Shown here: piece after piece, positions 56,244 to 63,813 of the stretch
Position numbering within the stretch: the first letter of the stretch is position 1
Layout of the letters: every line of letters begins with the position of its first letter
From: Candidatus Obscuribacteraceae bacterium
GTDB lineage: Bacteria; Cyanobacteriota; Vampirovibrionia; Obscuribacterales; Obscuribacteraceae
Assembly: GCA_044226015.1 (NCBI GenBank)
Contig: JBGAHS010000004.1
Coordinates: forward strand, 352,001-416,000
DNA: 64,000 nucleotides
Direction of reading: 5' to 3'
Position numbers and translations under genes: made by a program
Notes under the pieces: model-generated
Seen by the model: only the letters and a program-made list of their open reading frames with translations
Told to the model about the DNA's origin: nothing
The model's database searches: none

Positions 56244-56471
56244 ATTTCAAGATTCCTACTGTAGACTTTTCTTAAACAAAAAAGTGGTCCTGGCAGCTTC
56301 AAAGCATAGCATTACGAGCCTATAAAAGACCCATTTTACGAACCTGTTAGTTTCGTTTCTCTGCGTAATGTGTGACAGTCTGCATGCCGCAAGGCTATGC
56401 GCCGGCTAAAGAAGATATTAGTGGTTAATGTCCAGTAACTTGGCCGTCTTTGTGGTATAAGTTCCTCTTGT

Positions 56472-56544
56472 GGGGCGTTAGCGCAGTTGGTAGCGCGCAT
56501 CAATGGCATTGATGAGGTCACCGGTTCGACCCCGGTACGCTCCA
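56472..56544 (+). tRNA. tRNA-Ala(GGC)
   Basis: Acceptor stem GGGGCGT/ACGCTCC with G3:U70, anticodon GGC, GGTTCGA T-loop; CCA not encoded; TGgTATAAG promoter element upstream. Confidence 0.97.
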
Positions 56545-56693
56545 AAACTTTTCGGGGCAATTTCAAGCAGGCACATCTCAAGGTGTGAGTTTTAGCGCGA
56601 ACTTTAGCGCGAGCTTTTTGTAGCTAATGGCAACTTGCCACAGTTCTTGTGTCCGGTTGTCTGCAGCAATAAATCTCTAACGCTCGTTGTTAG

Positions 56694-58592: not shown

Positions 58593-60590
58593 ATGAAAAT
58601 ACGGGTCAAGTCGGCACTATCATTTTTTCTTTCGACCAGTTTCTTTATGACGGCGATTAGTGCTTGCGCGCAGTTAAGTCCAAAAACGGCAAATCAGGCT
58701 CAAAGAGCTTCTTCAAGTCTAGAGTCTACAAAAAAAATTGCGCTGGCTGATCCCGTTCCGTCCGAACCGATTGGCAAATTAAAAGATGGTATTTTGCTTG
58801 TCTATCCACGTGGTGAAAACAATAACAAGATTGACGCGAGCAGCACATTTCTGGTGGGAACACTGAAAGACGGGCGTGCGCTCACCTGCAATGGGCAAGC
58901 TGTAACGGTAAACGCCGATGGTTATTTTGCGCATGTTGTAAAACTGAACTATGGAACTAACGATTTTACGCTTGCAATTCCGGGAAAAGAAGCATTGGGG
59001 CTCAAAATTACGGTGGAAAGACCCGCACCGGCAGCGCCTCTCACTGAGTCTACTTTTAACATCTTGCCAGAGTCTCTTGAACCGAAGGAAAATATTGGTG
59101 TCAGCACAGGTGACATCTTGCAGTTTGCTGCCAGAGCAACACCGGGTTCTCAGATGTCTGTTCTTTTCGGACCCCATGCTATAGCAATGCATCCGGCGCT
59201 AACAAAGCAAGGAAAACATCCCGCTGTCAATCTGGGACTAGACACTGCATTCGGTGTCAGCTTTCAGCGCTCTCCAGCTGCCGTGAAAGACCTTTATCTG
59301 GGCTTTTATAAAGTTCAAGCCAGCGATGATTGGAGCAGAGTTTCGCCTACCTTCGTTTTGAAAAGCGGACCGAAGCAAATCAAGGCTAAAGCTAAAGGTA
59401 CGCTTAGTACTGTAAAACAACCACAGCTTATGCAAACAGCTCATTCAAATTGCATTGTGCGCCTCGGACCTGGGGCCGCTAGAACTACTCCACTTCCAGA
59501 AAATGTTCGCATGGTGGCCGACGGGTTCAAGGGGGACTGGTGGCGGTTTGAACTCTCTTCGGGTAAGCACTGTTGGATCAATAAGGAAGACGTGGTGGCT
59601 GATGATGACAGCACTGCTTTTCCTCAGTCACGCGTCAGTACCATAAATATGGGCACTGATGATTATGGTGCCACCATTTCTGTTCCTCTTACGCAGAGGT
59701 TGCCCTTTCAAATTGAGCAAGATTTGCGAGGGAAAAAACTCTTGTTGCATATTTTTGGTGCTACAGCTGATACCGATTTTGTCACCAGCGATTTAGCTAA
59801 GCCGTCAGATTCTGCTGTGGCAAAACTCATCGATTTCCTTTCGTTCAAGCAGAAGGGTGATAATCACTACGAACTATCCGTGCAACTGCTGAACAGTCAT
59901 CAATGGGGATTCTGGGCTGATTACAAAGATAACACTCTCGTATTACATGTAAAAAATGCTCCGGCGGTCGACCCCGATTCCGGAACAATGAAAGGCTGCG
60001 TCATTTGTGTTGACCCCGGTCATGGTGGCAAAGAAATTGGATCAATTGGTTGCTCTGGCGTCAAAGAAGCAACAGTGAATTTTCAAATCGCTGATAAGCT
60101 GCGTCAGGCACTCGAGTCAATGGGCGCCAAAGTGCTCATGACGAGAAAGGGAGATGATTTTGTCTCTCTTCAAGATCGAGTTGATATGGCTATCGCAGCT
60201 AAGGCAGATTTGTTGATCTCTGTGCACAATAATGCATTGCCTGATGGACGTGACCCATTGACTGAGCACGGCACCTCTGATTACTGGTATCATCCACAGT
60301 CTGTAGAGTTCGCGAGGCTGGCGCAGAAGCAGTTAGTACAAGCCAGTGGTTTTAAGGACTTTGGTAGTCGCTTTCAAAATCTAGCACTCTGTCGGCCAAC
60401 TCAAATGCCTGCCGCACTAATGGAAATTGGGTTTATGATTAACCCCGATGAGCTTTCGAAATTGCAAGATTCGCAGTTTCAGACGACCATTGCTCGTTCG
60501 ATTGCAAATTCCGCCAGGAAGTATGTTTTCGACAAAGTGAAAGAGCAGCAAAAATTGGAAGCTGCAAACAACAATACTGATTCTCAATAA
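58593..60590 (+). CDS. N-acetylmuramoyl-L-alanine amidase (Amidase_3)
   Basis: VDPGHGG, KEATVN, SVHNNA and LMEIGF motifs; signal peptide. Confidence 0.92.
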   Translation: MKIRVKSALSFFLSTSFFMTAISACAQLSPKTANQAQRASSSLESTKKIALADPVPSEPIGKLKDGILLVYPRGENNNKIDASSTFLVGTLKDGRALTCNGQAVTVNADGYFAHVVKLNYGTNDFTLAIPGKEALGLKITVERPAPAAPLTESTFNILPESLEPKENIGVSTGDILQFAARATPGSQMSVLFGPHAIAMHPALTKQGKHPAVNLGLDTAFGVSFQRSPAAVKDLYLGFYKVQASDDWSRVSPTFVLKSGPKQIKAKAKGTLSTVKQPQLMQTAHSNCIVRLGPGAARTTPLPENVRMVADGFKGDWWRFELSSGKHCWINKEDVVADDDSTAFPQSRVSTINMGTDDYGATISVPLTQRLPFQIEQDLRGKKLLLHIFGATADTDFVTSDLAKPSDSAVAKLIDFLSFKQKGDNHYELSVQLLNSHQWGFWADYKDNTLVLHVKNAPAVDPDSGTMKGCVICVDPGHGGKEIGSIGCSGVKEATVNFQIADKLRQALESMGAKVLMTRKGDDFVSLQDRVDMAIAAKADLLISVHNNALPDGRDPLTEHGTSDYWYHPQSVEFARLAQKQLVQASGFKDFGSRFQNLALCRPTQMPAALMEIGFMINPDELSKLQDSQFQTTIARSIANSARKYVFDKVKEQQKLEAANNNTDSQ

Positions 60591-60629
60591 AAATAGCTCG
60601 CCGGGCAGCATGGCGAGCTATTTTTATTG
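60585..60629. terminator. Bidirectional intrinsic terminator
   Basis: caataaaaatagctcgcc...ggcgagctatttttattg between convergent genes. Confidence 0.9.
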
Positions 60630-60648
60630 AGAATTTCAGAATTACTGA

Positions 60649-61482: not shown

Positions 61483-62949
61483 TCAGTCTTTTTTGATGTC
61501 TTCTGGTCGTATAGCTGGAAATCGAGATGTTGCTTCTATGTTTCTGTTCTTTTTGTCAGCAACATAGCCTTCTATATTCCTTTGTTGTGGGCGTGCCACG
61601 CACAGTGCCCCATCAGGAACAGGTTTTGTGACAACGGTTCCTGCTGCAACCATAGCCTCTTCGCCAACAAACACCGGAGCGACGAGAACTGCGTTGCAAC
61701 CAGTGCTTGAGTTGTTTCCAATCACAGTTTTTGATTTCTTACCGCTCAGCCTGTCGTAGTTGGCCGTGAGAGTTCCTGCGCCTATATTTACGTGATGTCC
61801 GAGGGATGCATCTCCGATATAACTAAGGTGAGAAACGTTGGTGTTGTTTGAGATTTGGCTCTTTTTGATTTCCACAAAATTGCCTATTCTGCAGTGCTCA
61901 GACACCAGAGCTTGCTCTCTCAAATGTGCAAAGGGTCCGACTTTGCAGTGAGAAGCTATTTCCGAGTTAATAACTACACTGTGCATCACATGTGTGTGCG
62001 AGCCAATTTTGGCTGGTCCAGTTATTTGAGTATTTGGTCCAATCACGCAGGATTCACCGATTTCAACTTTTCCAGTTATGTAGCACCCTGGTAAAACTGT
62101 GCTTTCCTGTCCGATTGTGACTTCAGGAGCAATCCAAGTGCTGCTTGGGTCAACGATAGTGACACCAGAGTCCAGCAGTAGTTTTTCAATTACCTGGTCA
62201 TGCATATGTTGATTGCATTCCATCAGGTCTTTTCTGGAGTTGATTCCCGCAACTTCGCGCCAGTTAGATGGTGCATCTGAAATCTTGAATTGCTTTTCGC
62301 GAGACCAGGCGAGCAAATCGGTCAAATAGTACTCTTTTTGCTGATTGTCGTTTTTGAGAGCGTAGAGACCTTCTTTGAGTGTCGGCCACTCAAGGCAATA
62401 AATTGCCGGGTTGATTTCTTTGATGCGCTTTTGCTCTTCGGTGGCATCTTTGTGTTCAACAATGGCGGCAACAACTCCGTCGCTGTCTCTGACAATTCGT
62501 CCGTAACTCTTCGCGTCATCCACTACTGTTGTGAGCAGGCTGAAGGCTGCCTCATTGTTGAGGTGGGCGTAAATCAAACCAGCTAGCGTTGTGTCGCTTA
62601 GCAGAGGGCAGTCAGCAACACTCACTAAAAGTGCACCTTCAAAACTTTCCAGAGAGGGAGCCACCTGCATCAGCGCATGACCCGTACCCAATTGTGGACT
62701 CTGTAAATGAGTGCTCCACGGGGTCTTTGGTGGGTTCTTCTTCAGATAGTCCTCTACCTGATCTGCTGCATGTCCAATCACTATATGAACGTGCTCAAGG
62801 TCTAACGAATCAATCGCTGCCAGCAATCGTCCTAAAATCGGAATTCCAAGAACAGGATGAAGTACCTTTGAGAGATTTGACTTCATCCGCTTCCCTTGTC
62901 CGGCGGCTAAAAGAACGGCTCTGACTGGCTTCTTATATCTATTGCTCAT
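61483..62949 (-). CDS. glmU: Bifunctional UDP-GlcNAc pyrophosphorylase / GlcN-1-P acetyltransferase
   Basis: LAAGQGKRMKS, QLGTGHA, YGRIVR, EYYLTD, GNFVEIK and HLSYIGDA motifs; hexapeptide repeats. Confidence 0.96.
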   Translation of the reverse strand: MSNRYKKPVRAVLLAAGQGKRMKSNLSKVLHPVLGIPILGRLLAAIDSLDLEHVHIVIGHAADQVEDYLKKNPPKTPWSTHLQSPQLGTGHALMQVAPSLESFEGALLVSVADCPLLSDTTLAGLIYAHLNNEAAFSLLTTVVDDAKSYGRIVRDSDGVVAAIVEHKDATEEQKRIKEINPAIYCLEWPTLKEGLYALKNDNQQKEYYLTDLLAWSREKQFKISDAPSNWREVAGINSRKDLMECNQHMHDQVIEKLLLDSGVTIVDPSSTWIAPEVTIGQESTVLPGCYITGKVEIGESCVIGPNTQITGPAKIGSHTHVMHSVVINSEIASHCKVGPFAHLREQALVSEHCRIGNFVEIKKSQISNNTNVSHLSYIGDASLGHHVNIGAGTLTANYDRLSGKKSKTVIGNNSSTGCNAVLVAPVFVGEEAMVAAGTVVTKPVPDGALCVARPQQRNIEGYVADKKNRNIEATSRFPAIRPEDIKKD

Positions 62950-63047: not shown

Positions 63048-63092
63048 AATAAAAGGAAAGAGGTTTGACCAGTGGTCAAACCTCTTTCCTTT
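63048..63092 (-). terminator. Strong intrinsic terminator (19-bp stem)
   Basis: aaaggaaagaggtttgacc-agt-ggtcaaacctctttccttt; U-tract on the minus strand. Confidence 0.85.
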
Positions 63093-63096
63093 ACTA

Positions 63097-63163
63097 TGGC
63101 CGCAGCGTCGGTGCTGCCCCGACGGGCTCGATCCCTCAAACCCCTCGCCTGGAGATACTGCGG
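63097..63163 (-). ncRNA. Non-canonical tRNA-like RNA ending in CCA
   Basis: Hand-folded cloverleaf; see findings. Confidence 0.6.
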
Positions 63164-63276
63164 ATGTGTGCAATCGAAATCGCGATTACTCTTATAGTTT
63201 TACCTCATTTCCAGGAATATTGTCGCTTCTAAGCCTTCCGTTAATATTTGTGTAAACGAATGTATTGTTGGACTGA

Positions 63277-63813
63277 TCAAATGTACTGAATGAGTGAGAG
63301 TAAGAATGTCGATAAGCCAGCTAGACCAAGTAGATTCAAGATTGTAATAGCAAGCTCATCTGAGCTTTCGGAAGAATCTAGATTTAGAATTCCGTCCAAT
63401 TTCCACTTAGAGGCAGATAGACGTTGCAGCTGTTCTTCGAGTTCCTGAATTTTTTCTTTTGAACGTTCATTTTCAATTCTGAGTGTTATTGCCTGCGCTG
63501 CAGTGAAGCGTAGGTCAGGTAGCACTTTAAGCTGTTGGTCGCGCTCATGAACCATTCCATTTAAATATCCAATGAATAACATGGCTCGCTGTAATTTGGA
63601 GTTCGTCACATCGTTACGCAACTCAAGTAAGTCAATTTTCGCTTGCAGCTCTTCCTTTATTATGTCGAATTTTTCGGAGTCGGAAATTATCTCGACCCAT
63701 GGAATTGTCTTTTGCTTCGGCTTGCTGCCAGAACCAAACAAATATTCGAGGGAATCTAAATCGACATCATCAGCAGCTGGAAGGTGAGAAAGGTGCGCTT
63801 GCGTAGTAATCAT
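63277..63813 (-). CDS. Coiled-coil hypothetical protein with C-terminal TM anchor
   Basis: Heptad-rich middle region and hydrophobic C-terminus. Confidence 0.7.
   Translation of the reverse strand: MITTQAHLSHLPAADDVDLDSLEYLFGSGSKPKQKTIPWVEIISDSEKFDIIKEELQAKIDLLELRNDVTNSKLQRAMLFIGYLNGMVHERDQQLKVLPDLRFTAAQAITLRIENERSKEKIQELEEQLQRLSASKWKLDGILNLDSSESSDELAITILNLLGLAGLSTFLLSLIQYI

Follow-up and report, generated by a model that had tools for sequence, protein, structure and literature searches.

A tRNA-shaped, probably non-decoding small RNA retained across the Obscuribacterales

Results

An RNA gene between a 178-aa reading frame and glmU

The window, that is, the whole stretch of 64,000 nucleotides analysed here (positions 352,001 to 416,000 of the forward strand of contig JBGAHS010000004.1, assembly GCA_044226015.1, Candidatus Obscuribacteraceae bacterium), carries on its minus strand a short RNA gene upstream of glmU. 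Its parts, in the direction of transcription and with the flanking genes, are as follows.

63277..63813, minus strand: context, upstream 178-aa open reading frame of no known family, a neighbour in 11 of 83 loci
63229..63244, minus strand: upstream promoter box, consensus TRAACGAAWNGTTAA, recognized by sequence conservation, probable activator site
63197..63202, minus strand: putative -10 element, TAAAAC (GG-TACAAA in the family), at the position that the box alignment marks as conserved
63191-63196, minus strand: TATAAG, alternative -10
63170..63189, minus strand: leader hairpin, predicted by folding, without family conservation, as leaders differ in length and sequence
63097..63163, minus strand: tRNA-shaped RNA core, 67 nt, mature 5' end at 63162 or 63163
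63158..63162, minus strand: acceptor-like stem, 5' strand CGCAG (CGCAG in 117, CGCGG in 3 and TGCAG in 3 of 123 sequences, the parsing pattern having admitted only these three)
63144..63154, minus strand: D-like arm, 3-bp stem CUC/GAG defined by covariation, loop CAGGC with a conserved AG
63124..63143, minus strand: 8-bp arm replacing the anticodon arm (covariation, RNAalifold)
63132-63135, minus strand: GGGA (GNRA) tetraloop closed by A-U (GGGA in 121 and GUGA in 2 of 123)
63107..63123, minus strand: T-like arm, 5-bp covarying stem, loop GGCAGCA
63106, minus strand: single free nucleotide before CUGCG
63101..63105, minus strand: acceptor-like stem, 3' strand CUGCG (family alignment)
63097..63100, minus strand: 3' tail R-N-C-A (tail counts from 123 sequences), GCCA in the window copy
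63048..63092, minus strand: intrinsic terminator, 19-bp stem spanning 63052-63092, A-rich 5' side, U tail
61483..62949, minus strand: context, downstream neighbour glmU, with NTP transferase and hexapeptide domains

A preliminary description, made from the letters of this DNA alone, had already given the 67-nt sequence with its position, the leader hairpin and the 19-bp terminator stem, all of which we find as it had them; the TATAAG that it named survives as an alternative -10 only, as the conserved -10 position falls on the adjacent TAAAAC. Elsewhere in the window lie an ordinary tRNA-Ala(GGC) gene (56471-56545) and, after an amidase gene, a long hairpin (60574-60642) that is probably a two-way terminator.

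Fold and covariation

The cloverleaf of the window copy is its minimum-energy fold, at -32.5 kcal/mol (z -2.41; 4 of 200 shuffled sequences fold as well). Across 66 distinct family sequences, 93.7% of the cells are paired and 11 of 22 pairs show compensatory change; none of 500 shuffles is as high, and slid controls stay at or below 45%, so the family places the cloverleaf well above chance. RNAalifold reproduces the covariation-based fold, tetraloop included.

Read from its 5' end, the family fold consists of CGCAG paired with CUGCG (5 bp), a linker of about 3 unpaired bases (3 nt separate CGCAG from the D stem in 107 of 123 sequences), a 3-bp D stem whose middle pair covaries UA/AU/CG, a D loop of 4-7 nt containing AG, an 8-bp arm with the GGGA tetraloop, no variable loop, a 5-bp T stem with a 7-nt loop, and one free base between the T stem and CUGCG. 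In a wider set of 58 sequences the long arm shows double-sided changes in 7 of its 8 pairs, and its closing A-U is present in all 58. Since two of our scan patterns fixed AGGGAT, the constancy of this motif is partly circular; in the searches that did not require it, 55 of 58 rows have AGGGAT, the other three being two with AGUGAU and one shortened. Pair 1:72 is unpaired in 27 of 58 and pair 7:66 in 29 of 58 sequences (37 of 66 in the other alignment); neither is conserved, and the conserved acceptor stem is therefore 5 bp, not 7. The acceptor stem and the tip are invariant in sequence, and the stems between them covary freely.

This fold changes much of the earlier arm-by-arm reading. The T stem of 5 bp and its 7-nt loop were right and the D stem, given as 4 bp, has 3 bp by covariation; the 6-bp anticodon-like stem with a 6-nt loop gives way to 8 bp and a 4-nt loop, the 1-nt variable region has no counterpart in the family fold, and the 7-bp acceptor stem loses its two end pairs. 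The likeness to tRNA-Pyl geometry, also suggested then, finds no support in the corrected fold; the absence of a CUA anticodon and of G3:U70 is confirmed by the sequence.

Range, copies and novelty of the family

By a covariance model, 103 of 107 Obscuribacterales genomes carry the RNA, at 1-6 copies per genome, among them 38 of the 39 genomes of good quality; a BLAST-type search returns homologues throughout the window's family. The first covariance model found none in 118 genomes of the other families of the class, and 150 further genomes sampled across the phylum gave none. As related genomes are not independent, these counts speak for retention rather than for many origins. Two of the four order genomes without the RNA also have no glmU match and a third has glmU at a contig end; the fourth, 71% complete, has glmU with no copy of the RNA nearby. 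A pattern scan over all GTDB species genomes yielded 104 stretches, the true ones being from Obscuribacterales/Melainabacteria or from loosely named MAGs; three filed under other names (L083, L093, L122) are identical to loci of window-family genomes. Pattern matches in Streptomyces, Lachnospiraceae, Leptospira and others are due to chance, none of the 10 genome loci and 15 viral loci scoring above 22 bits, and the viral contigs, phage records and plasmids searched held no family member.

The window's own genome has three copies in all, the two additional ones at C3:34092-34157 and C10:137468-137533. Three subtypes can be told apart: the main one (GGCAGCA), B (UGCAACA, CGCAACA, AGCAUCA) and C, which has a bulged base in the T stem and whose pattern occurs in 53 of 107 order genomes. 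Where copies stand in tandem (L111, L072, L007, L156, L228), 200-700 nt separate them and every copy has an upstream region and a terminator to itself. In one copy (L329:1501-1554, genome G005) the D arm is missing, as is part of the long arm; this is either a decayed gene or an assembly collapse.

Rfam assigns the RNA to no family: its matches are weak ones to hairpins, the best of them (E 0.029) on the terminator, and eight further family loci yield nothing at E up to 1; ARAGORN does not call it, even at a relaxed score. A full-text literature search, in which subscription journals were thinly covered, found no description. The preliminary description had left room for a known family or for a sequence without conserved relatives; with no Rfam or ARAGORN match, and covariation across the genomes of the order, the family is real and apparently undescribed, belonging to none of those tested.

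The 3' tail and the 5' end

In 123 distinct sequences, parsed with the tail positions left free (one further locus could not be parsed), the tail has a purine at its first position in 122 and CA at its end in 123; the base between is A in 68, C in 26, G in 15 and U in 14. The encoded CCA, regarded at first as a feature of the RNA, is thus an accident of the window's genus. CCA is encoded by 23 of the 72 host tRNA genes, and CA at 74-75 or a non-C NCA is present in none of them, so the conserved CA is not a trailer habit of this genome.

With CGCAG as its 5' end, the RNA would have a tRNA-like 4-nt overhang as its tail, with position 74 free, and acceptor and T arm together would make 11 steps. 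The leader then ends in a Y-R-U pattern (pyrimidine in 104, purine in 110 and U in 71 of 126) that agrees with host tRNA leaders (49, 47 and 41 of 71). A start one base earlier would bring the arm to 12 steps, but places A at -1 in 88 of 126 sequences vs 7 of 71 host tRNAs. The GGU motif in L15 of RNase P RNA reads RCC; the host RNase P RNA (G000:C6:773337-773681, L331) has CCG in place of this consensus GGU, so that a free base 74 would not block RNase P. The host has two CCA-type nucleotidyltransferases (open frames of 874 and 496 aa), which we take to be a split pair of CC- and A-adding enzymes. Rebuilding of the CCA end would relax the encoded CA; its invariance argues against such rebuilding.

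The elbow and the phage tRNAs that share it

D-loop nucleotides 2-3 are AG in 121 of the 124 sequences (out of 127) that could be parsed. The T-loop positions 54/58 are G.G in 111, C.A in 5, U.A in 4 and A.U in 3, with one misparsed (n=124), the kind of covariation that the trans pair of a T-loop should show. In one copy a D-loop GG occurs together with T-loop U55, i.e. the canonical G18.U55; a second copy with D-loop GG retains G55, against canonical pairing. We suggest that the RNA would form its elbow through A18.G55 and G19-C56.

Judged by sequence, the D-loop/T-loop elbow appears to be present as an AG/GGCAGCA variant that is common to phage tRNAs. In a comparison of 27 viral loci, chosen by T arm, the D-loop GG is missing in 21 of 31 tRNAs with GGCAGYA loops vs 1 of 76 with canonical loops. 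Because AG with GGCAGCA works as an elbow in real tRNAs, the RNA may fairly be expected to take an L shape. Phage and array tRNAs of the GGCAGYA type, represented by the IMG/VR loci L032, L044 and L343 and by the host array on C10, have the AG D loop, some with the same CUC-CAG(U/C)-GAG D arm, and two of them (L032, L343) have a nearly letter-identical D arm and anticodon stems of 8-9 bp, which suggests that the RNA may have descended from such a tRNA. Unlike the RNA, these tRNAs retain an anticodon loop of 7 nt and an acceptor stem of 7 bp, and most of them have CCA; they score at most 26 bits on the family model vs 43-92 for members.

The closest architectural relatives of the RNA are compact phage tRNAs with Thr and CAU anticodons (L032:1456-1528, L042, L044, L056, L036, L343), which have a 4-nt CAGC or CAGU D loop, little or no linker and anticodon stems of 8-9 bp. 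The GGCAGYA tRNAs at the pattern matches of viral loci L031-L057 are mostly uncalled by ARAGORN. The window's own genome holds a long tRNA array (C10:356333-358660, L174), in which ARAGORN missed three more tRNA-like genes with GGCAGYA loops (near 357987, 358065 and 358637). In Anabaena, 23 of 26 array tRNAs are charged, according to PMC8421152.

Promoter, terminators and genomic neighbourhood

In the main subtype, 71 of 87 copies are preceded by the box TRAACGAAWNGTTAA, with a constant spacing of about 28 nt to the -10-like element. The window's box and -10 have the top score genome-wide, 27.1, and the next is 16.3; the box does not mark a wide regulon in this genome. Its 11-bp TWAA repeat is reminiscent of OmpR/PhoB-type sites. 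The TrcR box (PMC10272220) differs from it in sequence. A terminator-like hairpin is present in the trailers of 115 of 146 family copies and in 10 of 146 shuffled ones; a simple terminator scan did not list the 19-bp stem of the window.

The commonest neighbour is glmU, which in 47 of 83 loci is one of the first two genes downstream, and the commonest upstream gene is matrixin-like, divergent, and first or second neighbour in 47 of 83 loci (downstream in 1). Nine loci face a convergent kinase gene, and other copies are in tandem or at unrelated loci. Subtype C often lies between a MerR-like HTH gene and an uncharacterized 285-aa HD-domain gene (L223, L224, L225, L227, L230, L232, L234, L235), the latter, which has no solved relative, often 340-800 nt downstream of the RNA. 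The 178-aa frame upstream of the window copy has no similarity to the MerR-like neighbour. In two loci argS lies upstream, and in one a convergent class I synthetase of the I/L/M/V group (L070, L096, L180). Conserved promoter, terminators and varied neighbours together indicate an independent gene rather than an attenuator of glmU.

Twenty-four sequencing runs contain a fraction of 0.13-0.16 of the words; in the four of them that were aligned, contigs cover 63086/63090-63166 and extend at least 68 nt into the upstream DNA of relatives, thus passing the predicted start, so that they may be DNA. In a crude search for antisense targets, 12-mers taken from the core had between 1 and 7 exact occurrences in the genome, none prominent.

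Comparison with known RNAs and candidate partners

In a canonical tRNA the anticodon loop is 7 nt long, includes U33 and R37 and sits on a 5-bp stem, where the RNA has an 8-bp stem and a GGGA/GUGA tetraloop; a canonical tRNA also has a 7-bp acceptor stem as against 5 conserved pairs, and a 3' CCA, which is encoded in 26 of 123 RNA sequences. The RNA shares with tmRNA, no-CDS forms included, a codon-blind tRNA-like domain, and a T loop of the GGCAGUA type probably occurs in alphaproteobacterial tmRNA. It differs from tmRNA in having no G3.U70 (the stem being CGCAG/CUGCG), a D stem and no tag frame: the interval between promoter and terminator holds the 67 nt and no tag reading frame, and the host has a separate full tmRNA (C11:389582-389962). 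The mascRNA and menRNA and the organellar t-elements are compact non-decoding cloverleaves of about 60-70 nt cut from longer eukaryotic transcripts; the RNA, in contrast, is a bacterial gene with its own predicted promoter and terminator. With YrlA, the bacterial Y RNA, it has in common that it is non-decoding and carries a tRNA-type D-loop/T-loop elbow; unlike YrlA it has no Rfam match, no Ro-binding domain and an open acceptor end. No likeness to 16S helix 45 was found, the host helix being of different sequence.

Several published relatives of tRNA can be set beside it. Y RNA is among the elbow-type motifs listed in 10.1101/2022.11.01.514747, and PMC11915505 treats the forms of tmRNA. According to PMC7609411, tRNA-Pyl and mammalian mt-tRNA-Ser(UCN) resemble the RNA in the small D loop, the lengthened anticodon-side stem and the lack of G18G19; unlike them, it has no anticodon, U33 or A37, an 8-bp arm and no variable arm. 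The CUA anticodon, 6-bp stem, 0-1 nt linker and 3-nt variable arm of tRNA-Pyl are all absent from it, and PylRS was found above the cut-off in none of 5 genomes. The allo-tRNA and selC-type tRNAs have, by that same source, an 8/4 or 9/3 acceptor domain and a long variable arm; the RNA has a 5-bp T stem and no variable arm.

Candidate protein partners were compared with the presence of the RNA, most of them on 5 genomes only. Ro60/TROVE proteins are in none of 5 genomes, three of them carriers, and RtcB is patchy, occurring in one of three carriers tested. The HD-domain gene is in 63 of 107 genomes and absent from the window's own genome with its three RNA copies, and is a lead only. A class IIa synthetase fares no better as a partner, with two SerRS-like genes in the own genome and in G011 and one in the carrier G037; judged by size, the own genome has two SerRS-sized and two ProRS-sized class IIa synthetases (C11:677361, C8:645179, C1:704758, C6:416266).

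CsrA recognizes the pattern ANGGAN in a hairpin loop. AGGGAU fits it, as in RNAs of the CsrB/RsmZ type, at a single site and with a freely varying pair below; CsrA is absent from the own genome and present in 2 of 36 family genomes, and the RNA is thus not a CsrA sponge.

Discussion

That this is a real, selected, non-decoding tRNA-shaped RNA we regard as very probable. A mimic that does not decode had been proposed from the window alone, and it is borne out by the covarying cloverleaf, the tRNA-type elbow, the GNRA tetraloop in place of the anticodon loop, and the lack of a match in Rfam or ARAGORN. As to what it does, our tentative first choice is an uncharged, codon-blind tRNA mimic that targets the translation machinery in trans; the E site of the ribosome is the candidate we would name first. 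In the E site the L1 stalk reads the elbow and a pocket holds A76, and neither C74 pairing nor a codon is needed. Elbow, 5-bp stem, CA, GNRA tip and arm lengths are fixed in the family, and base 74, junction pairs and arm sequence are free, a pattern that argues against decoding, P-site use and CCA rebuilding; the E site ranks first because it needs the elbow and A76 and does not need C74 pairing or a codon. The RNA would be the product of a stand-alone small-RNA gene fixed across the Obscuribacterales, transcribed from its own, probably activator-dependent promoter; its leader and trailer may be trimmed by tRNA-processing nucleases and its encoded tail kept, not rebuilt to CCA. The product, predicted to be compact, L-shaped and codon-blind, might then park in the E site of idle or stalled ribosomes, which is the most speculative step. 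Four observations speak against the E site: a fixed acceptor stem and tip suit a sequence-reading protein better than a shape-reading ribosome, the acceptor and T arm make 11 steps from CGCAG, one fewer than in tRNA, the family occurs in a single order whereas ribosomes are universal, and one of the two copies with D-loop GG retains G55.

These same features lend themselves to other readings. Somewhat more doubtful is a protein-free, codon-blind factor in a ribosomal tRNA site, either an uncharged E-site ligand for hibernation or quality control or a charged, puromycin-like A-site acceptor; if charged on its N-C-A end, it could enter the A site and release stalled peptides, as P-site pairing is impossible. 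Only slightly behind the E site, and held with similar reserve, stands an uncharged decoy or scaffold for a dedicated non-ribosomal protein (a tRNA nuclease, a processing or modifying enzyme, or a regulator), which would recognize the A-GGGA-U tip, the terminal CA and the CGCAG/CUGCG stem: invariance of acceptor stem and tip alongside free covariation in the stems that lie between them, the restriction to one order, the promoter box that is nearly unique in the genome and the HD-domain gene 340-800 nt downstream of one subtype favour it, but none of CsrA, Ro60, RtcB and the HD protein tracks the RNA. In a variant of this proposal the tip would hold molecules together, since by the GNRA receptor rule a GNGA loop docks on a CU:AG step, here supplied by another molecule's acceptor stem, so that dimers would form.

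We think it unlikely that, after trimming, the split CC- and A-adding enzymes restore the CCA end and that the RNA, once charged, donates its amino acid outside the ribosome, to cell wall, lipid or peptide synthesis. The fixed acceptor sequence does resemble identity elements, the host has the two nucleotidyltransferases, glmU is the commonest neighbour, and FemAB-like and aminoacyl-PG synthase genes are present in the own genome; against this, the encoded CA is invariant though rebuilding would lift selection on it, the acceptor arm is irregular at 7:66, FemAB-like genes and aminoacyl-PG synthase are each in 2 of 4 carriers tested, with neither in G037, and no extra synthetase is common to all carriers, one synthetase family having been tested. 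A cis element, attenuating or providing a processing signal for glmU or the upstream gene, is very improbable, and with it the attenuation of glmU that was among the early proposals: although glmU follows in 47 of 83 loci and a terminator separates it from the RNA in the window, many copies face convergent genes, stand in tandem with their own promoter and terminator, or are unlinked, and the commonest upstream gene is divergent. Least credible of all is that the RNA is a decayed tRNA or an oddly shaped one that decodes. The D arm, the T loop and the lengthened anticodon stem do recur in phage tRNAs whose anticodon loops are real, but the tetraloop and its invariant closing A-U leave no anticodon, the host tRNA set of 72 genes is complete, and decay is excluded by strong covariation and retention in 103 of 107 genomes.

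The alternative elbow (A18.G55, G54.G58) is common in phage tRNAs and missed by standard finders, and supplements on array tRNAs could describe the GGCAGYA form. Stand-alone tRNA mimics are rare in bacteria, and here is an RNA held by nearly every genome of one order, in which the anticodon loop and C74, thought basic to tRNA, have been dropped and the elbow, the 5-bp stem and the last CA kept fixed. This pattern of conservation amounts to a natural mutational scan that points at the partner of the RNA.
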